Assembly (NCBI GenBank): GCA_963751455.1
Contig: CAVVUN010000009.1
Location: forward strand, 256,001 to 320,000
Reading direction: 5' to 3'
Source of the DNA: Nitrospirota bacterium
Lineage (GTDB): Bacteria; Nitrospirota; UBA9217
Length of the DNA: 64,000 nucleotides
The notes beneath the pieces were generated by a model. That model saw only the letters and a program-made list of their open reading frames with translations. It did no database searches and was not told the origin of the DNA. Positions within the stretch are counted from its first letter, which is position 1. The number at the start of each line of letters is the position of its first letter. This document shows, piece after piece, positions 29,659 to 64,000 of this stretch. The translations under genes and the position numbers were made by a program.

Positions 29659-29740
29659 CCGCTCTCCATGACGTATTTAGTCTATACATCTATACTGTAA
29701 AAAGCGCTTCAACGCTAATGTTCATCGTCAGCACAGGGAG

Positions 29741-29799
29741 GGGTAACATGCGGATGTGGGGCGTGATTCTCAACGACCCTTACGATCCGCTTGTTATGC
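29741..29799 (-). other. attC site (59 bp)
   Basis: Minus strand: GCATAAC AAGCGGATCGT...ACATCCGCAT GTTACCC; R'' contains the TAA stop of the upstream gene; extrahelical base in L''. Confidence 0.85.
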
Positions 29800-31581: not shown

Positions 31582-31617
31582 TTTATCAAACCTCTATCAA
31601 CAATTTGCTCCGATAAC

Positions 31618-33425
31618 GAGTCTGTAGAAAAAGTCATTTTGCGAGAGATCTTTTTATCGCATCTCGTCTTTGATCCAACCTGTGTGCTCAGATTATCGGT
31701 TCGTTTTGATGATCTGCTTCGTGAGTGCCCCGGTTTCTATTCGGGTTGCCTTTCATTTACTGCTTTTTTGCTGCTCTTAACCATGCTTCTCACGCAAACC
31801 CCGGCCCGTATCGATGCACCTTCAGAAGATTGTGCACAATGCAGTAGAGCCGCCACTGGATGCTCACCTTCTTTTTCCCTCTGAGACTGAATCGATCCAG
31901 GCCGAGACTGGAACGGATGTCGGCAAAGACGGGTTCGACCGTCGCCATCCTTCTTCCATAGATCAGCTTGCCCGCTACCGAATCTATCTTCTCCCGCATC
32001 TTCTGCGTGAAGGTCTTGGTCTTGTTGCTCGGTCTTCCCGGTAAAGTGCGCGAACTGGCGGGTTACGGTCACATCGGGATTCTTCATGCACTTTGCTCTG
32101 AATTGGCAGGGGATGCAGTCTCTCTTGGTTCCATGGTACTTGATGGCGTGTAGTCCATTATGGATTGCGTTGCCGCTTTTGTACATCCGTTTCCCGGCCG
32201 GGCAGATGCAGAAGCTCTTGTCAGGGCTTACCGTGAAGTCGCGAGGCTGGAAGATGATGGCTCGGTCGAATCTTTTCGCGACCTCTTTATTGAACCGCTC
32301 CTTGTGTCGGTCCGCATCGGCGAACCGGGGATCGCGGTGACGGAATTTATTGTCTGCGATGTATGCGTCGATGCCGTCCTCGATTACCATCTCCACGTTC
32401 TTTTCGGAGTGGAAGCCGCTGTCGCTGGTCAGTTTGGTCTTTTTGAAGATGTCTTCTTCTTTCCCGATCGCCTTGAAGTTCTCCCGCGTTCCTTCGACCA
32501 TGGGTTTCAGTATTGCGGATTCGGAGTCTCCGGTCGCCTCTGCATGGACCACGACCTGATGCTTGCTGTCGACCATCGCTACGCCGTTGTAGCCCTGGAC
32601 GACGCCGTGGGAGGTCTTCATGTTGGCGCTTTCATTGTCGGTGATGTTGCTCTTCCTCGGTTTGCCCTTGCTGCCGGGCTTGTCGTCGTTTTCCTCGAGC
32701 CAGGCTTTGATCTTTTTGACCTTCGCCTTGAGGGTGGAAATGTATTGCTCTTCCTTCTCTATGACCGCCTTGTCGGTCTCGGTTTTGTCTCGTTCCTTAT
32801 GCTTGCGCGATGATCTGCCGGATGGCCTTTTCCATCTTCTCTTTTTTATGCTGGAGATCTTTCTTGGTTCCGCTCCATTCCTTTGAAGCATTCGAGGGGA
32901 GCTTGCAGCCGTCTACCGCGAACATCTCTTTGCCGATCAGGCCCATCTCGTCGCAGATAAGAAGGACTTCGAGGAAGAGCTTGATCGTTTCCTGGTCATG
33001 CGAGGAGATGAAGTCGGCTATCGTCGTGAAGTGCGGCCGGGTGTCGGCGGAGAGGGCCATGAAGATGACGTTCTCGTTGCAGCAGTCGGCGATCTTCCGG
33101 CTTGAGGTGATTCCCTTCGAATAGGCGTACAGGACGATCTTTAAGAGAATCCGGGGATCGTAGGCCGGGGCGCCGGTCTCGTCGTTCTTGTAGCGAAGGT
33201 CAAATGCGGAAAGGTCGAGTTCGTTGTCGATGAGATAATGAAGCGTGTGTTCGAAGGTGCCGTGAAGGATCTGTTTATCGAAGTTGATCGGAATGAACTT
33301 GCCTTGGGAATAATCGTACTCCTTGTATTTCGCCATACGCCTCCCGTGGGTGAGGGGTATTTGATGATTCCTTACAGCGTTTTGATGGCGTCATTATAGC
33401 ATAAAATGACTTTTCCTACAGGTTC
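31618..33425 (-). mobile_element. IS1182-family insertion sequence, 23-bp imperfect terminal inverted repeats, 3-bp AAC/GTT target duplication
   Basis: GAGTCTGTAGAAAAAGTCATTTT (31618-40) vs GAACCTGTAGGAAAAGTCATTTT (rc of 33403-25); AAC at 31615-17 and 33426-28. Confidence 0.9.
31790..33336 (-). CDS. IS1182 DDE transposase in three frameshifted pieces
   Basis: GAPAYDPRILLK..Y, PHFTTIADF, AVDGCKLPSNAS, TDNES..MK, GYN, DSGF, VEPVFA. Confidence 0.9.
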
Positions 33426-47118: not shown

Positions 47119-49341
47119 ATGTCTTTAAGCATATTAATGATGATTTCAAAAAACGACCGTTACGGCGCCCAGCGTGTTTTTCTGGACCAGGTTTCCAGTA
47201 TGCACCGCATGGGACATTCCGTCGTGGTGGTCGGCCGGGGCACTGAAGGTTTTGTAACCGAATCAGTCCTTGCCATGGGTGTGGAGTATCACGGCATATC
47301 CATGAGCAAGGTGAACGATTTGTTCTTTCTGATGCGCCTCGTGAAAAACAAAAATATCGACATCATCCATACTGCGCTCGATCGGGCCGATTATTTCGGA
47401 ATCCTGTTGTCCAGGTGCACCGGCAAACCGGTCATCACTACGATGAACGTGAAGCGGTCCCACCTGGGGCACAGGCTGGCAGACAGAGTTATAACAGTTT
47501 CGCGTCAACAAAAGATCTTACTCATAAAAAAAGGCGTGAATGCCGGCAAGGTGCACATGGTTCGCCCCGGGATAGACATTGACCGTTTTTGCCGCCCCGA
47601 TCCCGGAAAGCGCCAATTCTGGAAGCAAAAACTGAACCGCGACACGCACAGCATTGTCTTCTGCCATATCTCAAGCATGCTGCCCCAGAAAAACCATTCG
47701 GTCTCTATAGATCTTGTGGATTCATGCAGAAAGCGGGGAGAAGAGCCGCTCCTGATTATTGCGGGCGGTCCGCTCGAGGGCGAATATTATACATCGCTGA
47801 AAAAAAAGATTTCGGATTCGGGACTCGACAAGAATGTATATTTTACCGGGTGGACCAGGGACCTGCCGGAGCTGCTTTCTTTGAGCCATTTTACGCTTCT
47901 CCCCTCGGTCCATGAAGCACTCGGCATGGTTTTGATCGAGGGTATGGCTGCGGGGACCCCTATCGTGGCATGCAAGGGCGAAGGCGGAGCCGAACTGATT
48001 GAAGATTACGAAACGGGTTTCCTGTACGATACCGGGGAAGGCGTTCCTCGGCTGGCGGAACGGCTTATGGCGCTGTACAGCGACAGAACGCGATATGCAG
48101 CCCTCTCTGATAAATGCCGAAATCTGGCGCGGAATGAATTGTCCCTCGACCGGTTCGGAGAACACCTTTTACGAGTGTATAGTGAGGTCGTGACTATACC
48201 GCGCGTCTTCTCTGACCGGCGAGATCGGATACATACCTCTGACACTCAGCGAAAAGACAAACAATCGCTGCGTATTCTGCAAATAATATCCAAAAATGAC
48301 CGGTATGGGGCTCAAAGGATCTTTCTGGATCAGATATCGACTCTTCATGCCATGGGCAACCAGGTGACCGTCGTAGGTAGGGGCACAGAAGGGTTTGTCT
48401 CGGATTCAGTACGCAATATCGGCATACCCTACCACGGTATTCCGATGAACGGAATCGGCGACATTCATTTCGTGCGTCGTCTGATAAAAGAGCATAATAT
48501 TGATGTTATACACACTACCCTTGACCGAGCCGATACCCTGGGTCTACTCGCTTCTCCGTTCCTTGGTTGTCCCGTTATAAGCACCATGATGGTGCCGCGG
48601 GTGCACCTCGGCTTTCGGTACATGGACCGCGTGATTGCCTTGAGCCGCAAGCTTCAGGTATTGCTGAAACAGAAAGGGGTCGACCCGTCGAGAATTGAAG
48701 TAATACGGCCCGGCGTGAATGTTGAGCGGTTCACCAACCTGGACGAACAGAAGCGGAAGAGTTGGTACGAGAGGGTCCGGAGAGAGCGATATAGTATCGT
48801 TTTTTGCCATATCGCGAGTATGATCCCGAGAAAAGCCCATTGCGTATCACTCGAACTCGCGGATGCCTGCAAAAAACGGGGAGAAGAACCTCTCCTTATC
48901 ATAGTAGGAGATCCCCTTCGCGGTTCCTATTACGAATCCTTTATCAACCTGGTCAATGATAAAGGACTTGCGGGAAACGTCTTCTTTACAGGCTGGACAT
49001 CGGAAATTCCAGAAATATTGTCGCTCAGCCACTTCACGGTGCTTCCATCCGAAAATGAAGCTCTCGGTGTTGCGCTTATGGAAGGGATGGCCGCAGGCAC
49101 CCCGATTATTGCACGGTCGGACGAAGGCGGTGCGGAGCTTATTGATGATTACGGAACAGGATTCGTGTTCAGGCCCGATAAAGGTGTGGAAAATCTTGCC
49201 GTGGAACTGTTGGACACTTACCGGAAACCGGGCCGCTACAGGGAACTGTCCGCCCGATGCACCACGACGTCGATCTCGGAATTTTCGATGGAAAAATTCG
49301 GCAAGCGGCTGACCGATCTTTATGCCCGGGCCGGCCTCTAG
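47119..49341 (+). CDS. tandem GT4-GT4 glycosyltransferase
   Basis: Two homologous halves (ISKNDRYGAQR.FLDQ; EALG..L.EGMAAGTP twice). Confidence 0.88.
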   Translation: MSLSILMMISKNDRYGAQRVFLDQVSSMHRMGHSVVVVGRGTEGFVTESVLAMGVEYHGISMSKVNDLFFLMRLVKNKNIDIIHTALDRADYFGILLSRCTGKPVITTMNVKRSHLGHRLADRVITVSRQQKILLIKKGVNAGKVHMVRPGIDIDRFCRPDPGKRQFWKQKLNRDTHSIVFCHISSMLPQKNHSVSIDLVDSCRKRGEEPLLIIAGGPLEGEYYTSLKKKISDSGLDKNVYFTGWTRDLPELLSLSHFTLLPSVHEALGMVLIEGMAAGTPIVACKGEGGAELIEDYETGFLYDTGEGVPRLAERLMALYSDRTRYAALSDKCRNLARNELSLDRFGEHLLRVYSEVVTIPRVFSDRRDRIHTSDTQRKDKQSLRILQIISKNDRYGAQRIFLDQISTLHAMGNQVTVVGRGTEGFVSDSVRNIGIPYHGIPMNGIGDIHFVRRLIKEHNIDVIHTTLDRADTLGLLASPFLGCPVISTMMVPRVHLGFRYMDRVIALSRKLQVLLKQKGVDPSRIEVIRPGVNVERFTNLDEQKRKSWYERVRRERYSIVFCHIASMIPRKAHCVSLELADACKKRGEEPLLIIVGDPLRGSYYESFINLVNDKGLAGNVFFTGWTSEIPEILSLSHFTVLPSENEALGVALMEGMAAGTPIIARSDEGGAELIDDYGTGFVFRPDKGVENLAVELLDTYRKPGRYRELSARCTTTSISEFSMEKFGKRLTDLYARAGL

Positions 49342-50743: not shown

Positions 50744-51682
50744 ATGAACAATTCATCAAAAATATACGTTGCAGGCCACAGGGGACTCGTCGGATCTGCA
50801 CTCATAAAAAAACTCAAGGAACAGGGATACGGGCAGCTGCTCGTCAAAACGAGCCGTGAACTGGACCTGAGACGCCAATCTGCAGTTGAAGACTTTTTTG
50901 AGCATGAAAAACCGGATTATGTTTTTCTTGCCGCCGCCAAAGTAGGCGGCATCCTGGCAAACAACACCTATAAGGCCGAGTTCATTTACGATAATATTAT
51001 GATTGCGGCGAATATTATCAACGCCGCCTATAAATCCGGCGTAAAGAAATTACTCAATCTCGGCTCGTCCTGCATCTATCCGAAGTTTGCGCCTCAGCCA
51101 ATGAAGGAAGAACATCTGTTGACCGGCATTCTTGAGCCCACAAATGAACCGTATGCAATCTCGAAAATAGCCGCCATAAAGCTTTGCCGTTATTACAATG
51201 AGCAGTTTGGAACCAACTTCATATCCGTAATGCCTACGAACCTTTATGGACCGAATGATAATTTCGACTTTGAGACTTCGCATGTGCTTCCAGCATTAAT
51301 CAGGAAATTTCATGAAGCCGGGAAAGTGAATCAGGAATCAGTCGTCCTGTGGGGAACCGGGGAACCGTACAGGGAATTTCTCTACGTTGACGATCTGGCC
51401 GACGCCTGTCTTTTTCTTATGAAACGATACGATTACCGTGATATAGGTGAGTTTATCAATATCGGCACCGGCGAGGACATCAGGATAAAAGACCTCGCGG
51501 AACTCATAAAAAAAATCACCGGTTTCAGCGGAACGATTAAACACGATACCTCGAAACCCGATGGAACCCCCAGGAAACTCCTCGATGTGACGAGAATTTC
51601 CTCACTCGGCTGGAAGCCGAAGATCGACCTGGAAGACGGTATAAGAAGGACATATGAATTTTTCAGGGGAGCGGAGCGATGA
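50744..51682 (+). CDS. fcl: GDP-L-fucose synthase
   Basis: [37 protein letters not shown]. Confidence 0.95.
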
Positions 51683-52452
51683 AAGTCGTAATACTTGCCG
51701 GAGGCCTTGGAACCAGGATCAGTGAAGAAACGATAGTGCGGCCCAAACCGATGGTCGAGATCGGTGGAAAACCGATCTTGTGGCACATCATGAAAATATA
51801 TTCTCATTATGGATATAATGAATTTATTGTCTGCCTCGGTTTTAAAGGTTATATGATTAAGGAATATTTTTCGAATTATTTTCTTCATATGAGCAATGTG
51901 ACGTTCGATATGAAGCAGAATACGATGCAGGTGCACGAACAATATGCTGAACCATGGAAAGTAACCCTCGTCGACACGGGAACGGATACCATGACCGGAG
52001 GCCGCATAAAACGGGTCGCGCCTTATATCGGCAAAGAACCATTCATGCTCACGTACGGCGACGGCGTCGCCGATATCAATATCTCCAGCCTCGTCAAGTA
52101 CCACAAAAAACATGGAAAATTTTGCACGGTCACGGCCACGCAGCCGTCCGGCCGTTTCGGTGCTCTTCGTCTCGATGATGCGGGGCTGGTCGCCGCATTC
52201 CAGGAAAAACCTGCCGGCGACGGTTCCTGGATCAACGGCGGCTTCTTTGTTCTGGAACCGGGGATACTTGATTATATAAAAAGCGACGAAACTATATTCG
52301 AAAAAGAGCCTCTGGAACGGCTGTCAAGCGAGGGGCAGCTGGTCGCATACAAGCATGCTGATTTCTGGTACGCCATGGATACACTTCGCGATAAAAACCA
52401 TCTCGAAACGCTCTGGCAATCCGGTGATGCACCGTGGAAAGTATGGGAATGA
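51679..52452 (+). CDS. rfbF: glucose-1-phosphate cytidylyltransferase
   Basis: [39 protein letters not shown]. Confidence 0.96.
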
Positions 52453-52476
52453 CAAGCAGGAGATACGAGGCCTTTT

Positions 52477-53580
52477 GTGATCGATAAAGAATTCTGGAAA
52501 GGGAAAAAAGTGTTCCTGACCGGGCATACCGGTTTCAAGGGCTCGTGGCTCTGCCTGTGGCTTCATTCACTCGGAGCCGAGGTCCACGGCTATGCTCTTG
52601 ACCCGCCCACGAAGCCGAGCCTCTATGAGTTATGCGGCATTCAGCAGCTCCTGCGATCGACGATTGCCGATATCAGAGACCGCGACACTTTAACAAAAGC
52701 ACTAACTTCGTCGAGGCCCGAGATCGTGATCCACATGGCTGCCCAACCGCTGGTCAGAGATTCGTACAGGATGCCTCACGAAACCTACGAAGTTAACGTG
52801 ATGGGCACGGTCAATCTGCTCGAGTCCATCAGAGCATGCAAAACAGTTAAAGCAGTCATCAATATCACGACGGACAAATGCTACGAGAACAGGGAATGGA
52901 TATGGGGATACCGCGAAAACGAACCGCTCGGCGGGTATGATCCCTATTCGAGCAGCAAGGCCTGCTCCGAACTGGTGACTGCCGCATACCGCAGTTCGTA
53001 TTTCAATCCGAAAGACTATCCGGTTCACGGTGTTGCGCTCGCCTCAGCGCGGGCAGGCAATGTTATCGGAGGCGGAGACTGGGCGACTGACAGGCTTATC
53101 CCGGATTGCGTCAGGGCCTTTTTAAACGGCACGAAAGTTGTCATTAGAAATCCCGAATCAATCCGGCCCTGGCAGCATGTGCTTGAGCCGTTGAGCGGAT
53201 ACCTGGCGCTCGGTCGGAAACTGTATGAAGAAGGCCCAGCGTATGGTGACGCATGGAATTTCGGACCGGATGAAGCCGATGCAAAACCGGTCCGCTGGAT
53301 CGTTGAAAGGCTTTCTAGAAAATGGGGTGAAGGAGCGCACTATCTGGTAGATACCGAAAACAACCCTCATGAAGCTCATTATCTTAAGCTCGATTGTTCA
53401 AAAGCGAAGTCCAAATTGATGTGGCGTTCCCGATGGGACCTCCCAACCGCTCTCGAATCGATCATTGAGTGGACTCGTGCGTACAGCGAAAAAAGAGACG
53501 TAAAAAATGTCTGCCTGAAGCAGATAGGCGATTATTCACGGGACTCATACACGGGCAGAACACTCCCGGCGCCAGCCTAG
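52477..53580 (+). CDS. rfbG: CDP-glucose 4,6-dehydratase
   Basis: TGHTGFKGSWL, AAQPLVR.SY, TTDKCY, RAGNVIGGGDW, RPWQHVLEPL. Confidence 0.96.
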   Translation: MIDKEFWKGKKVFLTGHTGFKGSWLCLWLHSLGAEVHGYALDPPTKPSLYELCGIQQLLRSTIADIRDRDTLTKALTSSRPEIVIHMAAQPLVRDSYRMPHETYEVNVMGTVNLLESIRACKTVKAVINITTDKCYENREWIWGYRENEPLGGYDPYSSSKACSELVTAAYRSSYFNPKDYPVHGVALASARAGNVIGGGDWATDRLIPDCVRAFLNGTKVVIRNPESIRPWQHVLEPLSGYLALGRKLYEEGPAYGDAWNFGPDEADAKPVRWIVERLSRKWGEGAHYLVDTENNPHEAHYLKLDCSKAKSKLMWRSRWDLPTALESIIEWTRAYSEKRDVKNVCLKQIGDYSRDSYTGRTLPAPA

Positions 53581-53655
53581 AGCATAAAATGTTTCATTCA
53601 GTTGTTATGAAAAAAAGATACAATAGTAAAAGAATCTTTTTTTCAGGAGGTAAAT

Positions 53656-54744
53656 GTGGTCAGAGATATTTTTGAAGACTTGTTCGTCCTGGAAATGACG
53701 AACAACCATAAAGGCGACGTCAAAAGAGGACTTGAAATTATCCATCAGTTTTCACGCCTCGTTCGGTTCAATAATGTGAGAGCGGCGATCAAGCTTCAAT
53801 TTCGCGATGTCGACTCCTTCATTCATAAAGATTTCAGGACCAGGGACGACATCTATTACGTGAAACGGGTACTGGAAACGCGCCTGAAACTGGAAGAGTA
53901 TGCTGCCTTGGTTGAAGCGATCCGCAAGTCAAATTGCATTCCGATGACGACGCCCTTTGACGAAAAATCGGTCGATCTTATCGAGTATTTCGACATGCCC
54001 TTCATTAAAATAGCGAGTTCCGGCTGCAACGACTGGATGCTCATCGAAAGGATTGCGAAGACCAGAAAACCGGTTATCGTTTCCGTAGGCGGCATGTCCC
54101 TCAAGGACATGGACGATATGGTCACGTTTTTCGAAAATAGAAACATCCCCGTCTGTTTACTGCACTGTATCGCGGCCTATCCGACCGAAGAGCGCGATCA
54201 GCAGCTTAACCAGATCGATTTTCTGAGGAACAGATATCCCAATCATACTATCGGCTTGTCGTCTCATGAATATCATGATTGGCATTCATCGGTCACGGCT
54301 GCATACGCGAAGGGCGCCAGGGTTTTTGAACGGCACATCGATATCGATACCGACGGGTCAAAAGTGGCTGCCTATTCCTCGCTTCCTCAACAGATAGATA
54401 CATGGTTCAAGGCATGGCATCATGCAAAACTGATATGCGGAGCGTCCGGAGAGACACGGCTGATGCCTATTGATAAAGAAACTGAATATCTGCATTCCTA
54501 CATACGGGGTGTTTACGCCAAAAAAGACCTGAAAGAAGGAGGAATGATCTCGGAATCCGATATTTATCTGGCCATCCCTCTGCAAAAGGGGCAGCTGTCC
54601 TGCCGGGAATTGATGCTCGGGCAGTGGGGCCACAAGATCTTGAAAAATATCCAGAGCGACCAGCCCATCATGATCGATGCGATCGATACCCCGTACGCCT
54701 CCAGTGATGAATTAAAGAAACTTATTTATGAAAGAGGAATTTGA
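53656..54744 (+). CDS. NeuB-family PEP-dependent ulosonate synthase (divergent)
   Basis: EMTNNH.GD, KLQ, TPFD..S, KIAS, LLHC...YP, S.H, FERH, SAF-like tail. Confidence 0.85.
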   Translation: MVRDIFEDLFVLEMTNNHKGDVKRGLEIIHQFSRLVRFNNVRAAIKLQFRDVDSFIHKDFRTRDDIYYVKRVLETRLKLEEYAALVEAIRKSNCIPMTTPFDEKSVDLIEYFDMPFIKIASSGCNDWMLIERIAKTRKPVIVSVGGMSLKDMDDMVTFFENRNIPVCLLHCIAAYPTEERDQQLNQIDFLRNRYPNHTIGLSSHEYHDWHSSVTAAYAKGARVFERHIDIDTDGSKVAAYSSLPQQIDTWFKAWHHAKLICGASGETRLMPIDKETEYLHSYIRGVYAKKDLKEGGMISESDIYLAIPLQKGQLSCRELMLGQWGHKILKNIQSDQPIMIDAIDTPYASSDELKKLIYERGI

Positions 54745-54817
54745 CGCGGTCCATCATCAAGAATGCTTTTCAATCGGCGTGTATTGCGGACTTCGCCGGC
54801 TGGAAATGAGGTGAGAA

Positions 54818-56170
54818 GTGGCGGGGAAAAACGAAGGCGAAGAAGAATTGCGGAGTCAGGTGGTCCGTGCCGCAGCGCGCTATTATGAGTACAAGCACAG
54901 GGAAAAAGCCGTTTTCAAACCCGGAGACCGGATCGCTTACGGAGGAAGGGTGTTTGATGAAAAGGAAATATGCGCGCTGGTCGATTCTTCACTCGATTTC
55001 TGGCTTACGACAGGACGCTATGCTCAAAGATTCGAAAAAGATTTTGCAGCGCTTCTCGGCGCCGCATTTTGTTCCCTTACGAATTCAGGTTCTTCCGCTA
55101 ACCTTCTCGCCTTCGTGGCGCTGACGTCACCCTCTCTCGAAAAAAGGATTCATAAAGGCGATGAGGTCATAACCGTGGCAGCCGGTTTCCCGACTACGGT
55201 TGCCCCCATTATACAATACGGCGCAGTTCCGGTTTTTCTCGATATCACTCCACCCACGTACAATATCGATTGCTCGGGACTCGAAGAGGCGCTCTCGGAC
55301 AGGACAAGGGCCGTGATGCTGGCCCATACGCTCGGCAATCCCTTCGATCTCGAGGCTGTAAAAGGTTTCTGCGACAAACATGATTTATGGCTGATCGAAG
55401 ACAACTGCGACTCATTGGGTTCGAAGTATCGTTATAAAGGAGTCTGGAAATACACCGGGACGATCGGCCACATGGGGACATCCAGTTTCTATCCCCCTCA
55501 TCATATAACCATGGGGGAAGGAGGCGCGGTCTATACGGACGATGCGCGTCTCAAGAAAATAGTAGAATCGTTTCGCGATTGGGGAAGGGACTGCTGGTGT
55601 CCTTCCGGGCGGGATAATTCATGCAAACAGCGCTTTTCGCGGCAATTCGGACAGCTTCCGGTGGGGTATGACCACAAATACGTTTATTCCCATTTCGGGT
55701 ATAATCTCAAAGTCACGGATATGCAGGCGGCTATTGGTTGCGCACAGCTCGAAAAACTGCCCGGCTTCATTGCGGCCCGCAAAAAAAACTGGAGAGTGCT
55801 GCGGGACGGCTTGTCCGCTTTGGAGGACAGGTTTATTCTGCCTGAGACGGGTAACAACACGGATCCGAGCTGGTTCGGTTTTCTGCTTACGGTAAAAGAA
55901 AAGGCAGGGTTTACTCGAAATGAGATCGTAAGCCATCTGGAAAAGAACGGGATACAGACACGCATGCTTTTTGCGGGTAATCTTATCAAACATCCCTGCT
56001 TCGATGAATTACGTGAAACGGGGGCCGGATACCGGGTGATCGACGAATTGAAGAATACCGATATGGTGATGGAACGGAGCTTCTGGATAGGAGTCTATCC
56101 GGGGATGCGGGAAGGCATGCTGGAATTCATGATCGAAAAAATCAGGGAATTTGCAAACCGAACAGTATGA
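54818..56170 (+). CDS. rfbH: CDP-4-keto-6-deoxy-D-glucose 3-dehydrase (E1)
   Basis: NSGSSANL, SFYPPHHITMGEGG (His in place of PLP Lys), GRDCWC..C Fe-S motif, GYDHKY.Y.H.GYN. Confidence 0.93.
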   Translation: MAGKNEGEEELRSQVVRAAARYYEYKHREKAVFKPGDRIAYGGRVFDEKEICALVDSSLDFWLTTGRYAQRFEKDFAALLGAAFCSLTNSGSSANLLAFVALTSPSLEKRIHKGDEVITVAAGFPTTVAPIIQYGAVPVFLDITPPTYNIDCSGLEEALSDRTRAVMLAHTLGNPFDLEAVKGFCDKHDLWLIEDNCDSLGSKYRYKGVWKYTGTIGHMGTSSFYPPHHITMGEGGAVYTDDARLKKIVESFRDWGRDCWCPSGRDNSCKQRFSRQFGQLPVGYDHKYVYSHFGYNLKVTDMQAAIGCAQLEKLPGFIAARKKNWRVLRDGLSALEDRFILPETGNNTDPSWFGFLLTVKEKAGFTRNEIVSHLEKNGIQTRMLFAGNLIKHPCFDELRETGAGYRVIDELKNTDMVMERSFWIGVYPGMREGMLEFMIEKIREFANRTV

Positions 56171-57045
56171 AGATCCTGATAACAGGCGGCAGCGGCTTTA
56201 TCGGCAGAAACGTAAAGGAATATTTGTCCGCACGGTACAGCGTGCTTGCACCCGCTCATTCTGAATTGGAACTTCTCGATGAAAAGGCAGTTGAGAACTT
56301 TCTCGCAAAAAATTCCGTAGATATCGTCATCCACAGTGCCGTGAAGCCGGGCCACCGCAATGCCAAGGACCTTTCGGGACAGCTGTATACGAACACCCGC
56401 ATGTTTTTCAATCTCGCCAGGAATAATGATCGCTACGGGAAAATGATCTTCATCGGGTCCGGAGCGGTATACGACATGCGCGCATACAGACCCAAGATGA
56501 AAGAGGAATATTTCGATACGAGCATTCCTGCCGACGAGCACGGATTTTCAAAATATATCATTGCAAAATATATTGAGCGGACGGACAATATCCTGGAACT
56601 GAGGGTCTTCGGCATTTTCGGGAAGTACGAAGATTATGCCATACGGTTCATATCGAACGCGATCTGCAAGACGCTGCACGATCTTCCGATAACGATCAAG
56701 CAGAACCGCAAGTTCGATTATATCAATATTGACGACCTCGTGAAGGTGGTTGAGCATTTTATGCATAACGAGGGCCGGCATAAAGCTTACAATGTGACAC
56801 CGGACGCCTCTATAGATCTCCTTACGCTTGCCGAAAAAGTACGATCGCAGTCCGGGAACAAAGTTCCCATTCTCGTGAGAGAGACCGGGGCCGGATTAGA
56901 GTACAGCGGCGACAATTCTCGTCTCCGGGCCGAGATGCCCGAACTGAAACTTACTTCTCTTGATGAGTCCATTGCGCGGTTATACGATTGGTACGCTGCC
57001 CATCTTCACGTTATCGAGAGGGACAAGCTGCTGGTTGACAGATAA
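56167..57045 (+). CDS. NAD-dependent epimerase/reductase (extended SDR)
   Basis: ITGGSGFIG, GSGAVY, HGFSKY. Confidence 0.85.
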   Translation: MKILITGGSGFIGRNVKEYLSARYSVLAPAHSELELLDEKAVENFLAKNSVDIVIHSAVKPGHRNAKDLSGQLYTNTRMFFNLARNNDRYGKMIFIGSGAVYDMRAYRPKMKEEYFDTSIPADEHGFSKYIIAKYIERTDNILELRVFGIFGKYEDYAIRFISNAICKTLHDLPITIKQNRKFDYINIDDLVKVVEHFMHNEGRHKAYNVTPDASIDLLTLAEKVRSQSGNKVPILVRETGAGLEYSGDNSRLRAEMPELKLTSLDESIARLYDWYAAHLHVIERDKLLVDR

Positions 57046-57065
57046 GAACTCGGGGCCATTTTATC

Positions 57066-58883
57066 ATGATAAAGGTTTCTGATTACATCGTAAATAAACT
57101 CGTCGAGTACGGCGTGCAGCATGTATTTATGATTACGGGCGGCGGGGCAATGCATCTCAATGATTCGATCGGAAAATGCCGAGATATCGAATATATCTGC
57201 AATCATCATGAGCAGGCCTCTGCCATAGCGGCTGAAGGTTACGCCCGTGCCTCTGGAAAGCCTGCAGTGGTCGTAGTCACGAGCGGCCCTGGAGGAACGA
57301 ATACGCTTACCGGTGTCATCGGACAATGGCTCGATTCGGTCCCTGTCATTTACCTCTCGGGACAGGTCAAACAGGAGACAACGATAGAGTCATGCAGGGA
57401 ACTCGGTCTCCGGCAGCTCGGCGACCAGGAAATCAATATAATTGATATCGTGCGGCCTGTTACTAAATTTTCCGCTATTATAAAAAATTCGCGGGACATT
57501 AAAAAGCTCGTGGAAAAAGCCATGTACATCGCAACGCACGGAAGACCGGGACCGGTTTGGCTCGATGTCCCGCTCGATATTCAGGCGGCCATGATCGATG
57601 AAGAGACCCTGCAAGGTTACGACGAGAAAGAAGACGAGGTGCGTTTTGAACCGGCCGCAGTCAAAGCCCGGGTATCACGTCTCCTCGAAATGCTGAAGAA
57701 AGCCGAGCGCCCCGTTTTTCTTGCCGGGCAGGGGATACGGATTGCCGGGGGGCAGAAACTCTTTCTGGATGCCATTGAATCCCTGGGGATACCCGTTGTT
57801 ACATCGTTCTGCGGCTTTGATCTTATACCGACCGATCATCCGCTCTTCATAGGAAGAATAGGAACAGTGGGAAACCGGTCCGGAAATTTCACGCTTCAGA
57901 ACAGTGATTTGCTTCTGTCCGTAGGGTCCCGCAATAACATCAGGCAAGTCAGTTACAACTGGCGTTCTTACGCGCGAGCCGCCACCAAGGTCATTGTCGA
58001 CATCGATGCTTCGGAACTTAAAAAGCCAACAATCAAACCGGACCTTGCTGTTCATGCCGATGCAGCTGTTTTTTTAAAGGAACTGCAGGCCCAGCTTACG
58101 CACCAAAAGCTTCCCGAACGGAACAAATGGCTGGAATGGTGCCGGTTCAGAAAAGAGAAATATCCTCGAGTCTCGTCGGAACAGCGTTCTTCGACCGGCT
58201 TCGTCAATCCCTATTATTTTATAGAAATGCTGACCGGTTCGCTGCGTGAAGAAGCGATCGTGACCGCAGGGAACGGTACTGCCTGCGTCGCGCTGTTTCA
58301 GGCCGGCACTGTAAAACAGCGGCAGCGCATGTTCTGGAACTCTGGCTGTGCTTCCATGGGATATGATTTACCCGCTGCCATAGGCGCGTGCCTGGCAAGT
58401 GGAAGGAAAGACGTTGTTTGCCTGGCCGGTGACGGCAGCCTCCAGATGAACATTCAGGAACTGCAAACAGTTGCGCACAACCGGCTGCCGATCAAGCTTT
58501 TTGTACTCGATAACAGCGGATACATTTCGATCAGGCAGACTCAGGATGCTTTTTTTGACGGCCGACATATAGGATGTGATGCCGCCAGCGGTGTCAGTTT
58601 TCCGGATATTGAAAAAGTAGCCTCAGCCTACGGCATCAGAACCGCTGCGATAGAAAATCATAAAGAAATGAAAGATGCTATCTCAGTGGTTCTCGAGACC
58701 GAGGGTCCCGTGATCTGCCGGGTCCGTCTTTCTCCCGGTTACAAATTCGAACCCAAGCTCTCTTCGGAACGTAAACCGGACGGTAAAATTGTTTCAAAGC
58801 CGCTGGAAGATATGTTTCCGTTCCTGGACCGTGAAGAATTCAAAAGCAATATGCTCATTCCCGAATGGGACCCCGAACAATGA
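57066..58883 (+). CDS. ThDP-dependent carboligase (acetolactate synthase-like, YerE-type)
   Basis: HHEQA..AAEGY, TSGPG.TN, GRPGPVW.DVP.D, GDGS.QMNIQEL..DNSGY. Confidence 0.88.
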   Translation: MIKVSDYIVNKLVEYGVQHVFMITGGGAMHLNDSIGKCRDIEYICNHHEQASAIAAEGYARASGKPAVVVVTSGPGGTNTLTGVIGQWLDSVPVIYLSGQVKQETTIESCRELGLRQLGDQEINIIDIVRPVTKFSAIIKNSRDIKKLVEKAMYIATHGRPGPVWLDVPLDIQAAMIDEETLQGYDEKEDEVRFEPAAVKARVSRLLEMLKKAERPVFLAGQGIRIAGGQKLFLDAIESLGIPVVTSFCGFDLIPTDHPLFIGRIGTVGNRSGNFTLQNSDLLLSVGSRNNIRQVSYNWRSYARAATKVIVDIDASELKKPTIKPDLAVHADAAVFLKELQAQLTHQKLPERNKWLEWCRFRKEKYPRVSSEQRSSTGFVNPYYFIEMLTGSLREEAIVTAGNGTACVALFQAGTVKQRQRMFWNSGCASMGYDLPAAIGACLASGRKDVVCLAGDGSLQMNIQELQTVAHNRLPIKLFVLDNSGYISIRQTQDAFFDGRHIGCDAASGVSFPDIEKVASAYGIRTAAIENHKEMKDAISVVLETEGPVICRVRLSPGYKFEPKLSSERKPDGKIVSKPLEDMFPFLDREEFKSNMLIPEWDPEQ

Positions 58884-58941
58884 TGTGGAAACAGCACATT
58901 AAACCTTTACATTCATCGGCAAAGGATGAGGTGATGAGATC

Positions 58942-59607
58942 ATGAAACGTACCGTTCTCCTGACCGGCGGATCACGAGGAATAGGTTCAGCCGTGAAAAA
59001 GCGGTTGAGCAGCGAAGACATGGAAATATTGGCTCCAGGAAGGGCGGAACTCGATTTGCTCTCCAATGAATCGATCGGTTCCTTTCTGGCTTCACTGAAG
59101 CGTCCTGTGGACGTCCTGATAAACAATGCCGGAATCAATCATCTTGCATCCGTCGAGGAGATCACGACGGATACTTTGGAGGCGATGGTGCAGGTGAATT
59201 TAACGGCCCCCCTTAGGATTATTCAGGGCACACTGCCCGGAATGAAGAAAAACCGGTATGGAAGGATTCTTAACGTAAGTTCGATATTCGGAATTGTTTC
59301 AAAGGAGCGGCGCTTGCTGTATTCCGCCACAAAATCCGGGCTGATAGGAATGACAAAAACGCTTGCACTGGAACTGGGGCCGTTTAATATTCTGGTCAAC
59401 TGCATTGCCCCGGGCTATGTTTTGACCGAGTTGACGAGACAGAACAACAGCCCCGAAGAACTGAAACGGATTTCCTCATCCATCCCTCTCAATCGGATTG
59501 CGGAACCTTCAGAGATAGCCGAGGTTGCTGCATTCCTGTGCTCCGACAGGAACACGTATATAACGGGGCAGGCCATAGTTGTGGACGGGGGATTTACATG
59601 CAGGTGA
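58942..59607 (+). CDS. classical SDR oxidoreductase
   Basis: TGGSRGIG, NNAG, YSATK, N.IAPG, YITGQ...VDGG. Confidence 0.9.
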   Translation: MKRTVLLTGGSRGIGSAVKKRLSSEDMEILAPGRAELDLLSNESIGSFLASLKRPVDVLINNAGINHLASVEEITTDTLEAMVQVNLTAPLRIIQGTLPGMKKNRYGRILNVSSIFGIVSKERRLLYSATKSGLIGMTKTLALELGPFNILVNCIAPGYVLTELTRQNNSPEELKRISSSIPLNRIAEPSEIAEVAAFLCSDRNTYITGQAIVVDGGFTCR

Positions 59608-60677
59608 TCAACATCAAATCCGCTGTGCGGAATTATACTGTCTCATTCCCGGTTCGAGACGATTTTGTGGGTGAATTGACCTCCAGGGCGGATTGCTTGT
59701 TTGTCATTGACAGTACTGTATGGAATCTTCACAAGGACGGCTGTCTCAATCAATTAACAAAATCAGATAAGATAATTTTACCAGTCGCTGAAGAGCGAAA
59801 GAATCTTGACAGCGTTCAAGAGTTGTATGACGGATTTATGGACCGGTCGGCAAAGAAGAACATGACCATGATAACGATTGGAGGGGGCATTCTCCAGGAC
59901 GTCTCCGGCTTCGCCGCTTCTACCCTCTACAGAGGCATCAACTGGATATTCATGCCTACGACTCTGCTTGCCCAGGCAGACAGCTGCATAGGGAGCAAAA
60001 CATCCCTTAACTATAAACGATTTAAAAACCTGGTTGGAACGTTCTATCCGCCTTCAGAAGTGTACATATACACTCCCTTTCTCGAGACATTGAAGCCGAT
60101 AGATTTCTTCAGCGGGTTAGGAGAGGTCATCAAACTCCATATTATGGGTGGTCAACAGAAAACAGACGAATTGATTACCATATGGTCCGATCTTGTTCAG
60201 CGTAAACCTGAATCACTGATGTCAGCTGTACAGAACTGTCTTGCAATTAAACAGAGTTACATGGAGAACGATGAGTTTGACACCGGACGAAGAAATCTTC
60301 TGAATTTCGGCCATTGTTTCGGCCATGCTCTGGAAACAGTGAGCCACTATCGTATTCCTCATGGTCAAGCTGTGGTAATAGGGATGCTTTTTGCAAACAT
60401 AGTAGCCAAAAACATGGGGATACTCGGTTCCGCAACTGAGGATTATCTTGCACACAAGCTGCTCTTGAGTGCGGTCAATGCGAAGATAACGCGGTCCGAT
60501 CTTGACGCAAAACACATTGCTGAAGCCATGAAAAAGGACAAAAAGAGGGTCGGAAAAGATCTTGTTATTGTCTTAATGACTGAAGATTTCATCTTTGAAA
60601 AAATAACCAATTTCCGCGAAGAAGATCTGGCCCCAGGGATTGACGAACTTATAAACGTACTGCAATTGACTGAGTGA
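59598..60677 (+). CDS. 3-dehydroquinate synthase-like (sugar-phosphate cyclase family) protein
   Basis: GGG..QD, PTTLLAQADS.IG.K, KNLVG.F, LNFGHCFGHALE, PHGQAV. Confidence 0.85.
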   Translation: MQVINIKSAVRNYTVSFPVRDDFVGELTSRADCLFVIDSTVWNLHKDGCLNQLTKSDKIILPVAEERKNLDSVQELYDGFMDRSAKKNMTMITIGGGILQDVSGFAASTLYRGINWIFMPTTLLAQADSCIGSKTSLNYKRFKNLVGTFYPPSEVYIYTPFLETLKPIDFFSGLGEVIKLHIMGGQQKTDELITIWSDLVQRKPESLMSAVQNCLAIKQSYMENDEFDTGRRNLLNFGHCFGHALETVSHYRIPHGQAVVIGMLFANIVAKNMGILGSATEDYLAHKLLLSAVNAKITRSDLDAKHIAEAMKKDKKRVGKDLVIVLMTEDFIFEKITNFREEDLAPGIDELINVLQLTE

Positions 60678-60996
60678 TAGCTTTATTGTCTCATGAAAAC
60701 GACTTTCAGTTCTGTGGAGTAAGCACATCTGTGGCAGAGATACTCCCTTCATTATAAGTATTAACCTTCCTTCAATCCTCAAGGCAGCAAATGGCAACAA
60801 TGCGCAAATTAAATCAGTTTAATGCAGGAATAAACCCCGTACGATTCTTGTTCATCCCTTGTAATTGATATTTGGAATGAAGCGTGCTACGCTTAATTCT
60901 GTAACATCTGCTGTCCAAGTCTTGATAATCACACTTCCGATGGAATAAAAATATCTCCCCGCATGGGCTCTCGGAATAGCGATAAGGACATAATAG

Positions 60997-62010
60997 ATGA
61001 AGACTATCAGTATCGTCACGCCCTGTTACAACGAAGAAGAAAATGTAGAAAAGGTATATTGGGAAACAAAGAAAGTATTCGAAAGGCTTCGAAACTATTC
61101 TTACGAACACATATTTATCGACAATGCGTCTCGTGATGGAACGGTTCGAGTTCTCAAAGCAATTGCGAAACACGATAAAAAGGTAAAGATTATTGTGAAT
61201 AATCGTAATTTCGGGCATATACGCTCTCCGTTTTACGGCCTTTTGCAATCGACAGGGGATGCTGTCGTATTGCTGTGTGCGGATATGCAGGATCCGCCGA
61301 CCATGATCATTGATTTTGTTAACAAATGGAATGAAGGATACAAGGTCGTTTTAGGAGTAAAGAAAACGAGCCAGGAATCAGCGGCCATGTTCGCCATACG
61401 AAAACTGTATTACTATATTATTCATTCCCTGTCTGAAGTCCCGATTACTAAAAATCATACCGGGTTCGGATTATATGACAGGGAGGTTATCGATATTATG
61501 AGAAAACTCGGTGACCCGTATCCGTATTTCAGAGGTCTCATTTCCGATCTCGGGTACGAAAGCGCAAAGATATATTACGATCAGCCAAAAAGAAAACGAG
61601 GCATTTCAAAAAACAATTTTTACACACTCTACGATATGGCAATGCTCGGCATTACGAATCATTCCAAAGTTCCGCTTCGTCTTGCCACAATGCTGGGTTT
61701 CGCAATCGCTGCCTTGAGTCTCGTCGTTGCTTTCTGCTATTTTGTTGCCAAGCTTATTTTTTGGGATCGATTCAGCCTCGGCACAGCTCCCCTGATCATC
61801 AGTTTGTTCTTCTTTTCGTCTGTTCAATTATTTTTTATCGGAATTATCGGCGAATATATCGGATCCATACATACCCAAATATTAAAAAGACCCCTGGTCG
61901 TTGAAAAGGAAAGAATCAATTTCAATTCAAATGATGTCCTGGATTCACATGACGGAGAAATTTCGGGCGTCATGAAGGACAAAACTGTAAAGCATGAAGT
62001 TTTCCAATAA
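60997..62010 (+). CDS. GtrB-like polyprenyl-phosphate glycosyltransferase (GT2 + 2 TM)
   Basis: PCYNEE, DNAS.DGT, RNFG, ADMQDPP, C-terminal TMs, GEYIG. Confidence 0.88.
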   Translation: MKTISIVTPCYNEEENVEKVYWETKKVFERLRNYSYEHIFIDNASRDGTVRVLKAIAKHDKKVKIIVNNRNFGHIRSPFYGLLQSTGDAVVLLCADMQDPPTMIIDFVNKWNEGYKVVLGVKKTSQESAAMFAIRKLYYYIIHSLSEVPITKNHTGFGLYDREVIDIMRKLGDPYPYFRGLISDLGYESAKIYYDQPKRKRGISKNNFYTLYDMAMLGITNHSKVPLRLATMLGFAIAALSLVVAFCYFVAKLIFWDRFSLGTAPLIISLFFFSSVQLFFIGIIGEYIGSIHTQILKRPLVVEKERINFNSNDVLDSHDGEISGVMKDKTVKHEVFQ

Positions 62011-62452
62011 TGCTATTCAAACACAATTGAACAGCCACAGCGTCAAGACGAAATTTGTGATAGTTGGAATCTGGAATACATTTTTCGGCTATCTGGTATT
62101 TTATTTACTTGACTCGCTGTTCAGTTCTCGCTTGCAAACAAGAGCTGTTGCTTACATGAGCGCGATGACGTTTGCGCAGATCATTGGCGTCATAAACGCG
62201 TATTTATCCCACAAAAGAATAACATTCGAGACATATACGAAGGGAAGGGGAACGGTCATTGAGTTTTTTCGTTTTACCGTCACCTACGTCTTTTCGTTTT
62301 GTGTTAACGTTCTTTTATTGCCGGTCCTTGTTGAATCAATGAGCATCGATCCGAAAATCGCTGGTTTGATTCTTGTCATAATAACGACAATAACAAGTTA
62401 TCTTGGCCATTCAAGATTCTCATTTAAAAAGAAACTGCCGGAATTACAGTGA
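61994..62452 (+). CDS. GtrA family flippase
   Basis: KFVIVG..NT..GY, four TMs, F.RF, SY.....FSF. Confidence 0.85.
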   Translation: MKFSNNAIQTQLNSHSVKTKFVIVGIWNTFFGYLVFYLLDSLFSSRLQTRAVAYMSAMTFAQIIGVINAYLSHKRITFETYTKGRGTVIEFFRFTVTYVFSFCVNVLLLPVLVESMSIDPKIAGLILVIITTITSYLGHSRFSFKKKLPELQ

Positions 62453-62603
62453 CTTTCGGGTAATTTAGATCTGCATTGATTTTAAACCCTCTGGATATTT
62501 CTCCGGCTTCTCCTGCTTTTGTTCTGAATTAAATCTCGGACCTATGGAGAACTGACTCAGCGTGAATTACGCGGATAAGACATTAACGAATAAAGCAGCT
62601 GTG

Positions 62604-64000
62604 ATGAAATATGCATCTGCGATTCATTATTTTGTCTGCAGTTTAGGGCTGATCGGACTCTCAAAATATCTATCTCTCATTCTCGGATCATTTCTATTCA
62701 AATCCCATGAACGTCTGCAAATTAACGAATATCTTGTAGCATATTTCTTCTATCCTGAAAAACGGTACGAGCTTCTGCATTACAGCTTGATACTGGCTCT
62801 TCTGGTCTCATACTATTTTTGTGTCCATATCATTTTCAATAGAATAATCAGGAAACGCCAGGGATCTATTGAGAACTTTAGCTCCTTTTTAACGGCTGAA
62901 ATAGTCGTTCTTTGTTTTAACCTCATTCTGCTTAATCCTCATAATATCCGCAACGCCTGGAGACTCATTTTGGGGGTATGTCTGTGGTTGATTCTCTTAT
63001 TTGCTCCTTTACTACAACAGTATCTCGAGCTGTCGCAGCGTAAACTCGATCGATATTACTACGTGGTACTATCCATTGTTATTGTACAATTCATTTTTGT
63101 TTTTTCACCGTTTATTATTCATGAGCCAAAAATGATAAATGAGTTTCTTGATATTCCGGAAAAAACGTTTATACAGAAGGAAGGCAGGCATGATAATTAT
63201 TCGGAGAAACGCGCCAACAACAGCGACAAGGATTACTTGACATTGATTGACAACAGCACATTTATAAATCACTTCAGACTGTTCGGGACGCACCTGAAAT
63301 ATGACTTACTTAATGATAAAGGCCAAGACCCTGTTCCTTCAATCGGAAATTACATTTTGTTTCCAAAAACGCCTAATCTTCAAAATTTTATTAATGACAA
63401 AGAACTGAATAGGGGTCTGAAATACTATTACGACGATCGGTATTCGGTTTTAGTTGCCATCGACAAAATATCTGCACTGGAAAAGACAGCTCTGAGCAAC
63501 CTCGCAAATGAGGAAAACAACAAAAAAGCCATTGAAGTGTTCTGCGATTCAAATGCCGGCGTTGTCCAACCCTCAAAGAGCGAAAACTATTCCGGTCCGG
63601 TGAAGGATTTTCTTAAAAAAAATGCCTTTGAAATACACTGGCAGATTTTGAATCGATGGGTAATTCATCATCATAATTTTACCCTGGCTCCTATGAACGA
63701 ATACGATCTTGGAAAAAATGTGAAAGATATTTACGCCCAGTACGGGCTTTTGAACCTGATTGTTACAAAAAAAGTCCTTGATCTGATTGGAGGGCTGAAT
63801 TATCAGAATTATCTGAAGACGTGGTTCTCGTATTACTATATTTATTATGGATTATTGTTTGTTCTGATAATATTCCTGTTCCGTGATGTGAAGTATGCGA
63901 CGCTGATTATTATCTTAGTTTCTTATCTGGTGACATCTGTCGGTTTCAATTATCTGTTTCTTGGTCCCGGTCTAAATCCTATCAGGCACTTTTTCGACAT
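62604..64000 (+). CDS. large polytopic membrane protein, possible GT-C (GtrC-like); runs off window end
   Basis: Frame appears open from ATG 62604 to window end by manual reading; several TM segments, large soluble loop, HHHNF...AQYG motif; follows gtrB-gtrA. Confidence 0.65.
   Translation, partial: MKYASAIHYFVCSLGLIGLSKYLSLILGSFLFKSHERLQINEYLVAYFFYPEKRYELLHYSLILALLVSYYFCVHIIFNRIIRKRQGSIENFSSFLTAEIVVLCFNLILLNPHNIRNAWRLILGVCLWLILLFAPLLQQYLELSQRKLDRYYYVVLSIVIVQFIFVFSPFIIHEPKMINEFLDIPEKTFIQKEGRHDNYSEKRANNSDKDYLTLIDNSTFINHFRLFGTHLKYDLLNDKGQDPVPSIGNYILFPKTPNLQNFINDKELNRGLKYYYDDRYSVLVAIDKISALEKTALSNLANEENNKKAIEVFCDSNAGVVQPSKSENYSGPVKDFLKKNAFEIHWQILNRWVIHHHNFTLAPMNEYDLGKNVKDIYAQYGLLNLIVTKKVLDLIGGLNYQNYLKTWFSYYYIYYGLLFVLIIFLFRDVKYATLIIILVSYLVTSVGFNYLFLGPGLNPIRHFFD

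Follow-up and report, generated by a model that had tools for sequence, protein, structure and literature searches.

Positions 51679 to 64000 of the window analysed here (64,000 nucleotides; contig C9 256001-320000 of genome G000) are filled by 11 open reading frames (ORFs), all on the + strand and with no internal stops in an ORF check. Comparison with related loci makes it very likely that this gene block is an intact and widely shared cassette for a long C4-branched 3,6-dideoxy sugar. The full route proposed here, which probably ends in a CDP-3,6-dideoxyhexose with a 1,3,4,5-tetrahydroxyhexyl branch at C4 (caryophyllose or a stereoisomer) that is delivered by a lipid carrier outside the inner membrane, is favoured with moderate confidence. 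The chances are about even that the block encodes two undescribed activities, namely a NeuB-fold synthase of the C4 epimer of 3-deoxy-D-arabino-heptulosonate 7-phosphate (DAHP) and a 3-dehydroquinate synthase (DHQS) homologue that stops before ring closure and is portable, together with a short-chain dehydrogenase/reductase (SDR), as a phosphate-to-methyl module. Gene order and content were as given in a preliminary description of this DNA, and its caryophyllose-type reading gained support from the Mycobacterium marinum gene set and from the role that NeuB takes in place of an aldolase at other loci.

Steitz et al. (2022; PMC9306805) proposed a scheme for long-branched sugars in which a hydroxylated 2-oxoacid is produced by an aldolase and joined to CDP-4-keto-3,6-dideoxyglucose by a YerE-like thiamine diphosphate (ThDP) enzyme, with reduction as the last step. 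ErwE, MMAR_2332 and MyGE were active with model substrates, and MMAR_2332 preferred an (R)-4-hydroxy donor, matching caryophyllose; the C1' configuration is set by the reductase and differs in R. palustris (PMC9306805). A term search for dehydroquinate synthase gave no occurrence in the text and supplement of that paper. Polyprenyl-linked delivery has been proposed for the GT2 enzymes of mycobacterial lipooligosaccharide (LOS) clusters (PMC4403928). Both the core scheme and the lipid-carrier idea are therefore already published and were overlooked by the preliminary description. A literature search, with most subscription papers outside its scope, found no branched-sugar role for DHQS-like or NeuB-like genes.

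Caryophyllose is 3,6-dideoxy-4-C-[D-altro-1,3,4,5-tetrahydroxyhexyl]-D-xylo-hexose, and M. marinum mutants in MMAR_2331-2333 are without it (PMC5706390). Directly after MMAR_2333 (GT2), 2332 (ThDP) and 2331 (aldolase/citrate-lyase family; PMC9306805), a gene table lists MMAR_2330 as an SDR (689 bp), 2329 as '3-dehydroquinate synthase' (1082 bp) and 2328 as a sugar kinase, and on the other side 2334 as a nucleotidyltransferase, 2335 as a pyridoxal phosphate enzyme and 2336 as rfbG (PMC13354803). The comparison was made through this table and three genomes with the same gene order (L183, L185 and L186), which were among 6 matches in 400 scored genomes of a mycolic-acid genus. Each carries rfbF-GT2-ThDP-aldolase-SDR-DHQS-kinase divergent from rfbH-rfbG-gtrA, matching MMAR_2334 to 2328 and MMAR_2335-2336 in order, apart from the added gtrA, and having similar gene lengths. 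Their DHQS proteins are 32-35% identical to that of the window and keep all catalytic positions as well as two family-specific residues, Q100 and C130. The other three matches comprised one at a contig edge, an SDR-DHQS-kinase set with no ThDP gene in 19 kb, and a subtype with a K179-to-H substitution beside an HpaI-like aldolase.

The window block and MMAR_2328-2336 have in common the rfbF/rfbG/rfbH-type genes, a YerE-like ThDP enzyme, the paired SDR and DHQS-like genes and a polyprenyl-loading type of GT2, and gtrA is common to the window and the three mycobacterial-type cassettes. However, the HpcH-type aldolase (the MMAR_2331 counterpart), a pyruvate aldolase, is absent from the block, where a phosphoenolpyruvate (PEP)-dependent NeuB-family synthase is found in its place, no sugar kinase is present, and the extended SDR and membrane protein of the window belong to other families than those of the M. 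marinum cassette. Co-occurrence of the genes in a known producer, to which the preliminary description had looked, was thus found for the ThDP, SDR, DHQS-annotated and GT2 genes but not for NeuB. On this comparison the window locus is judged to work like the M. marinum caryophyllose cluster, but it is not a strict member of that type because the aldolase and kinase are missing.

Relatives of the block were collected around the NeuB-like gene (species genomes; at least 466 relatives, best 80 kept) and around the DHQS-like gene (metagenomes; best 80 of 551 relatives, with near-copies such as L158-L161 included). The grouping of these genes is not due to chance, because the same genes recur together in 80 loci of many phyla. 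The best 80 NeuB-centred loci include a ThDP gene in 71, rfbH in 54, rfbF and rfbG in 46 each, a GtrB-like gene in 56, a DHQS-like gene in 30, the SDR in 29, a HAD phosphatase in 16 and an HpcH-type aldolase in none, and the ThDP gene was present in 60 of the 62 with at least 4 kb on either side. Among the best 80 DHQS-centred loci, 50 carry only an HpcH/citrate-lyase-family aldolase (PF03328), 11 only a member of the NeuB clade, two a DmpG-like aldolase and one both an aldolase and a NeuB, in two cassettes. No aldol-type enzyme was seen in 16, 15 of which have less than 1 kb upstream; the remaining one, L147, is in a different context. In a FastTree tree of 101 DHQS-like proteins (without L156 and without partial or identical sequences), the NeuB label changes at least 11 times, 9 of these forced by well-supported branches, and NeuB and aldolase loci form sister pairs (e.g. 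L110 and L104), indicating that one has been swapped for the other repeatedly. Three unrelated aldol-type enzymes feed the same downstream genes, and this is the strongest sign that the NeuB-like enzyme makes the product of the aldolase.

The SDR gene adjoins the DHQS-like gene in all 97 loci holding both and is fused to it in none, and 28 of the 30 well-covered DHQS loci have a ThDP gene no more than 10 kb from the pair. In all five genomes checked whose NeuB locus has no DHQS-like gene, only matches of 31-35% identity exist, so the SDR-DHQS pair is optional. If the NeuB product is phosphorylated, loci without DHQS would need another means of removing the phosphate. KDN-9-phosphate synthase works with a HAD phosphatase. 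In the best 80 NeuB-centred loci, HAD adjoins NeuB in 15 loci without and one with DHQS (Fisher p 0.0035), and HAD and DHQS are exchanged in the same slot between sister rows (L021 vs L027; L010 and L024 vs L014, L015 and L037), a hint that HAD replaces DHQS for phosphate removal.

Other variants of the cassette were also seen. About two dozen Terriglobales loci (L031-L077) carry NeuB and ThDP genes with methyltransferases and PMT-type transferases and have neither SDR-DHQS nor a free HAD, and may make methylated or hydroxyl-ended branches. Two HpcH-family ORFs occur in nine aldolase cassettes (L089, L093, L096, L116, L121, L126, L127, L132 and L135), as paralogues in tandem in L089, L096 and L121, and are candidates for a heteromer or for two successive aldol steps. 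A relative, L167 (G039:C1:524000-543999), has rfbF-rfbG-rfbH, a 503-aa NeuB (41% identical) and a ThDP gene but no SDR-DHQS, so that pairing with branching enzymes extends to a second NeuB subclade.

The NeuB-like gene (53656-54744, +) encodes a member of a separate clade of PEP-dependent synthases (PF03102, 140 bits), far below the PseI (340) and NeuB (400) cut-offs. Its best PDB match was 3g8r (E 3e-64), annotated only as probable SpsE, with meningococcal NeuB at 1e-25. In an alignment of 90 clade members to meningococcal NeuB, the PEP and metal residues that are common to NeuB, PseI and LegI synthases (E13, K46, K118, S121, S143, S202, H204 and H227) were invariant in all 90. Unlike in those enzymes, the ManNAc ligands have changed. 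N74, which binds the ManNAc C6 hydroxyl according to the ligand roles given for meningococcal NeuB (PMC11339185), aligns with R63 (R in 89 members, K in one), and H57 aligns with R50, which does not vary among the 90. R314, an essential residue of bacterial NeuB that contacts the N-acetyl group (PMC8208679), is absent from all 90, where the aligned residue is I, V or Y (I307 in the window protein), and D247 falls on a variable position and is not kept. At the E134 position, 83 of the 90 have D, a change tied, as a hypothesis, to phosphorylated substrates (PMC8208679). The loss of R314 and the E134 to D change resemble NeuB members with phosphorylated substrates, such as mammalian NANS, though the window protein itself has G. 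From these replacements we infer that the substrate is a short, non-acetylated aldose phosphate, with the phosphate of erythrose 4-phosphate placed approximately where C6 of ManNAc lies.

The clade also differs from NeuB, PseI and LegI in its link to a ThDP gene and in having no NeuC/NeuA partner. As the preliminary description had stated, neuA and neuC are not found within the gene block; across the genome NeuC gave no match at or above the family cut-off, and two PF02348 matches are both unlinked to the block. A role as a standard nonulosonate (Neu5Ac/Pse) synthase was rejected on the lost ManNAc ligands, the scores below cut-off and the lack of linked neuA/neuC. A NeuB match at E 1e-40 was present in only 2 of 60 relatives, a patchy distribution typical of surface-glycan cassettes, and plasmid searches gave no close DHQS-like or NeuB-like match.

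The DHQS-like gene (59598-60677, +) most likely starts at ATG 59598, giving a 10-nt overlap with the stop of the classical SDR gene (58942-59607, +; adh_short). Its product passes the cut-off of TIGR04425, a family of AroB-related phospholyases, only marginally (401.8 vs 400 bits), falls below that of AroB TIGR01357 (267 vs 305 bits) and is 34% identical to the genome's own AroB. The predicted structure has the DHQS fold (pLDDT 89.6; TM 0.85-0.88 to DHQS structures), with AroB proteins as the best Foldseek matches. Thirteen residues match the genome's own AroB (D128, K134, N144, E176, K179, K218, E226, R232, N236, H239, H243, H255 and K315) and vary little or not at all among 30 relatives, whereas Q100 and C130 are family-specific. 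In a visual comparison with sequences from the supplement of PMC4426668, the active-site pattern is that of DHQS/aminoDHQS (acidic E226, DKK) and not that of ValA, EVS or BtrC. The window motifs are KQSYM..DEFD..RNLLNFGHCFGH..DKK, as against the EEVS, EVS and DOIS fingerprints MLEEL..DFGHSFSP..HR; DPYE..KIR; EYGH..DNK, and membership of the EEVS, EVS or DOIS groups was rejected as the fingerprint motifs are not present. The residue pattern supports oxidation and C7 phosphate elimination on a heptulose-type substrate, which would fix the chain length at seven.

Four DHQS-family genes were found in the genome. An aroC-aroK-aroB operon lies on contig C15 and two DAHP-synthase-like genes are found elsewhere on C15 (labels read from sequence and context). 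As this operon is complete, the window copy is dispensable for aromatic amino acids. The case raised in the preliminary description, that it might be the only aroB, does not apply, and a spare housekeeping aroB was rejected on the same operon and the score below the TIGR01357 cut-off. A phage collection gave 10 matches, at 30-34% identity, which is the AroB level, a genus-wide search around G148 gave none (0/267), and a phylum sample around G001 gave 7 of 401 at E 1e-80, one strong (G357) and six at 271-280 bits. A predicted SDR-DHQS-like complex scored 0.00 with controls that were not folded, and was used neither for nor against binding.

The sugar phosphate cyclases (DHQS, EEVS, EVS, DDGS, aminoDHQS as well as DOIS) share with the window protein the fold and the NAD and metal sites, but the characterised members close a ring, whereas the window protein, with Q100/C130 and a fixed SDR neighbour, is predicted not to. 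A ThDP donor requires a 2-oxo group, and DHQS-type ring closure consumes that group. Cyclisation would therefore deprive the ThDP enzyme of a group that it requires, and a methyl group stands at the end of the product known for the homologous genes; on both grounds a non-cyclising reaction is predicted.

The remaining biosynthetic genes of the block provide the front end. RfbF, a glucose-1-phosphate cytidylyltransferase (51679-52452, +; TIGR02623, 444 bits, cut-off 300), RfbG, a CDP-glucose 4,6-dehydratase (52477-53580, +; TIGR02622, 515 bits, cut-off 278), and RfbH, the CDP-4-keto-6-deoxyglucose 3-dehydrase (E1; 54818-56170, +; NF011936, 726 bits, cut-off 423), are all over NCBIfam cut-offs. 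The YerE-like ThDP-dependent carboligase (57066-58883, +; three TPP domains) is below all 25 listed cut-offs of acetolactate-synthase type. Its best PDB match, 8rph, had an E of 4e-135, compared with 1e-76 for plant acetohydroxyacid synthase, and shows the CDG motif described for JanthE; the protein is 35-36% identical to the ThDP enzymes of the mycobacterial-type cassettes. Directly upstream, an extended SDR (56167-57045, +; PF01370) is predicted to act like YerF and reduce the C1' ketone of the branch. Its relatives in the mycobacterial-type cassettes are all distant, and in the NeuB-centred loci this family is found in 13 of 80 and a second extended-SDR family in 46 of 80. Yersiniose (YerE/YerF) and erwiniose (ErwE/F/I/J) are made in the same way, a ThDP enzyme transferring a decarboxylated 2-oxoacid to CDP-4-keto-3,6-dideoxyglucose before a reduction, but the donors are pyruvate or 4-hydroxy-2-oxopentanoate and the described gene sets are without a NeuB or DHQS-like gene.

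Downstream, a GtrB-like GT2 (60997-62010, +; PF00535), predicted to load the sugar onto polyprenyl phosphate and matched by the PgfS and ArnC models below their cut-offs, is followed by a small GtrA-family flippase (61994-62452, +; PF04138, 75.5 bits); GtrB-like and GtrA-like genes travel with the cassette, also in mycobacterial-type loci. The third gene (62562-64000, +) encodes the first 479 of 857 aa of a multi-pass membrane protein, and extends 1135 nt beyond the window end (full length at L001:562-3135). From its position and topology it is predicted to be a periplasmic GT-C-type transferase. It has approximately 11 hydrophobic helices, with relatives in six other DHQS cassettes, and gave no profile match in Pfam, NCBIfam (479-aa part only) or PDB. 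Its 79 database matches, itself included, carry no Pfam domain. GT87 or PMT-type genes hold nearby positions in other loci. The membrane-protein family (~650-1140 aa) has conserved NEY, RWVIHHHN and PGLNPxRH motifs and an acidic loop motif, and is a candidate new GT-C family. The GtrABC and ArnC/E/F/T systems likewise line up a GT2, a flippase of the GtrA family and a large membrane protein, but with the profiles tried the third protein of the window matched none of the known GT-C families, and the predicted cargo is a C12 branched sugar. The preliminary description had called these genes GtrBAC-like, and the first two assignments hold, while 'GtrC-like' is drawn only from position and membrane topology. 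The acceptor would probably be lipopolysaccharide (LPS), as the same-strand gene run upstream starts with an LPS heptosyltransferase II homologue (42863, over cut-off), continuing with a GT2, three GT4 and gmd-fcl.

In the proposed route, RfbF, RfbG and RfbH, with clear family membership and established chemistry, would give CDP-4-keto-3,6-dideoxyglucose. The NeuB-like enzyme, as the predicted 3-deoxy-D-ribo-heptulosonate 7-phosphate synthase, would condense PEP with erythrose 4-phosphate to this C4 epimer of DAHP. The DHQS-like enzyme would oxidise C5, eliminate the C7 phosphate, reduce C5 again and protonate C7, and the resulting 7-deoxy-6-ketone would be reduced at C6 by the adjacent SDR to 3,7-dideoxy-D-ribo-heptulosonate, the type of donor proposed by Steitz et al. 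By analogy with YerE/YerF, ErwE and MMAR_2332, the ThDP enzyme would decarboxylate this donor and add it to C4, and the extended SDR would reduce the new ketone. The GtrB-like, GtrA-like and membrane proteins would then load, flip and transfer the sugar, probably onto LPS.

NeuB-type facial selectivity, applied to erythrose 4-phosphate, would set the C4 configuration of the product to that of the ribo epimer. A D-altro branch has C3', C4' and C5' in the D-ribo series and corresponds to a 3,7-dideoxy-D-ribo-heptulosonate donor, whereas DAHP is D-arabino, with the wrong C4; C4 of Neu5Ac is on the same side as that of the ribo donor. On the proposed route, the ribo epimer is required because of the D-altro branch and the (R)-4-hydroxy donor preference of MMAR_2332. 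DAHP could therefore not be borrowed, and a dedicated synthase would be needed despite the two DAHP synthases. Sedoheptulose 7-phosphate has the same C4-C6 configuration as the ribo donor and is a substrate of other DHQS-fold enzymes, so the DHQS fold should be able to accept this configuration.

Several observations weigh against this route. Every AroB catalytic residue is kept, so the active site gives no reason for non-cyclisation, and TIGR04425, a hypothetical equivalog, is named 'cyclizing' by NCBI. The enol-pyranose released by DHQS cyclises spontaneously in solution, and active protonation or capture would be needed in the DHQS-like step. EVS, whose substrate is sedoheptulose 7-phosphate, has K250/R264-type residues too, so these are no proof of a carboxylate substrate. 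SDR-DHQS pairs without a nearby ThDP gene occur at G000 C2, L147, L184 and L187. The exclusion between HAD and DHQS is not significant after kinship correction (5 independent pairs, p 0.5), and 35 of the 80 NeuB loci, mostly from one acidobacterial clade, have neither. The rfbI/ascD partner reductase (E3) was not found in the genome, the best score being 27.6 bits with a profile built from locus genes. The mycobacterial cassettes carry an FGGY sugar kinase of the MMAR_2328 type that the window block is without, and the kinase profile matched in only 2 of 160 loci, one at threshold. In the literature consulted, mutant data were found for MMAR_2331-2333 but not for MMAR_2329 or MMAR_2330. Two HHalign comparisons of the membrane protein with single GT87/PMT proteins gave no link, leaving its transferase role without sequence support.

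The same product could be reached in another order, with the DHQS-like enzyme and SDR removing the terminal phosphate ahead of the aldol reaction, either from erythrose 4-phosphate or by way of sedoheptulose 7-phosphate, to give a 4-deoxy-tetrose for the NeuB-like enzyme and PEP. Steitz et al. have the aldolase join pyruvate to a ready-made aldehyde, 28 (PMC9306805), as such an order would have it, and DHQS-fold enzymes do act on sedoheptulose 7-phosphate, with the K250/R264-type residues kept in EVS. However, the window protein has the DHQS/aminoDHQS pattern (E226, DKK) and not that of EVS, EEVS or DOIS, and the NeuB clade has the same arginines beside DHQS, beside HAD and where both are missing, in keeping with a phosphorylated aldose in every case. 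The sugar kinase of the mycobacterial cassettes and the second aldolase ORF in 9 of the 51 aldolase loci also speak for early deoxygenation, but both are absent from the window, and this order is considered unlikely.

It is also improbable, and slightly more so, that the DHQS-like enzyme cyclises and with the SDR makes a separate carbocycle (epi-quinate-like or a carbasugar), while the ThDP enzyme grafts an unmodified 3-deoxy-heptulosonate to give a CH2OH-ended branch. Besides the retained catalytic residues and fold and the 'cyclizing' label, the optional presence of the SDR-DHQS pair in NeuB-ThDP loci (30/80) and its occurrence beside cytidylyltransferase, SIS and Gfo/Idh/MocA genes without ThDP would be consistent with this. 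Against it, M. marinum has the same set among its caryophyllose genes, and the LOS structures given for that species include a methyl-ended branch and name no carbocyclic sugar (PMC5706390); the pair is close to a ThDP gene in nearly all well-covered DHQS loci, as given above, and the ThDP-less copies at G000 C2 and L187 have K179 replaced by H and may be another subtype. Two unrelated ordinary pathways in neighbouring positions, one adding a pyruvate-derived C2 branch as in yersiniose and the other making a standard nonulosonic acid through NeuB, with a spare aroB in the DHQS-like gene, would agree with the top annotations (N-acetylneuraminate synthase, acetolactate synthase and 3-dehydroquinate synthase) but are highly improbable given that no NeuC is over cut-off and no NeuA is linked, that N74 and R314, the latter essential in bacterial NeuB (PMC8208679), are lost, that aroC-aroK-aroB is complete on C15, and that NeuB and aldolase genes are mutually exclusive beside the ThDP gene.

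The second SDR and TIGR04425 pair of the genome (contig C2 187427-194217; L168:3427-10214; 450 bits) is followed by genes for a cytidylyltransferase, a 2-hydroxyacid dehydrogenase, a methyltransferase, a SIS protein, a Gfo/Idh/MocA oxidoreductase and a 'cyclase'-family protein, and no ThDP or aldolase gene is in view at this locus. The otherwise invariant K179 is H in this DHQS-family copy; L187 has the same substitution and L147 a similar gene set. The product of the C2 cassette may be a different one, activated by CMP or CDP and possibly carbocyclic. A fourth DHQS-family gene (C9:171542-172912) has a divergent active site without K218 and the DKK positions.

A 319-nt gap and a drop in G+C separate the biosynthetic genes (0.45-0.53) from the gtr block at window 60678-64000 (0.41 in gtrB and 0.39 in gtrA), suggesting that the two were acquired separately. 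Beyond the membrane-protein ORF are a GT2 and then manC/manB-like genes (man assignments taken from the sequence). Scans for promoters and terminators gave no usable signal (34 promoter-like sites vs 22 +/- 6 in shuffled sequence; 18 terminator-like sites vs 15 +/- 4). Elsewhere in the window, two complete GT4 glycosyltransferase units in tandem form one 740-aa protein (47119-49341), and a lower-G+C stretch at 26686-33336 has two large - strand ORFs (991 and 595 aa) with no NCBIfam match, adjoining an IS1182-family transposase split across two ORFs; this stretch is possibly a defence island.

The published long-branch scheme leaves open the origin of the 7-deoxy donor of caryophyllose, and the cassette points to an answer that can be assayed with small soluble enzymes and ordinary substrates. 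If correct, the two activities would supply the missing donor step, M. marinum included, and TIGR04425 would be reassigned from a cyclase to a deoxygenation enzyme. Phosphate elimination without cyclisation would add a reaction new to the sugar phosphate cyclase superfamily, and a non-cyclising DHQS fold would lend itself to studying how the final step of DHQS is controlled. A NeuB clade acting on a C4 aldose phosphate would correct many 'N-acetylneuraminate synthase' annotations (at least 466 relatives) and would be a biocatalyst stereocomplementary to DAHP synthase. The content of such loci in aldolase or NeuB, SDR-DHQS or HAD, and methyltransferase genes might then allow branch structures to be predicted for the surface sugars of many uncultured phyla.

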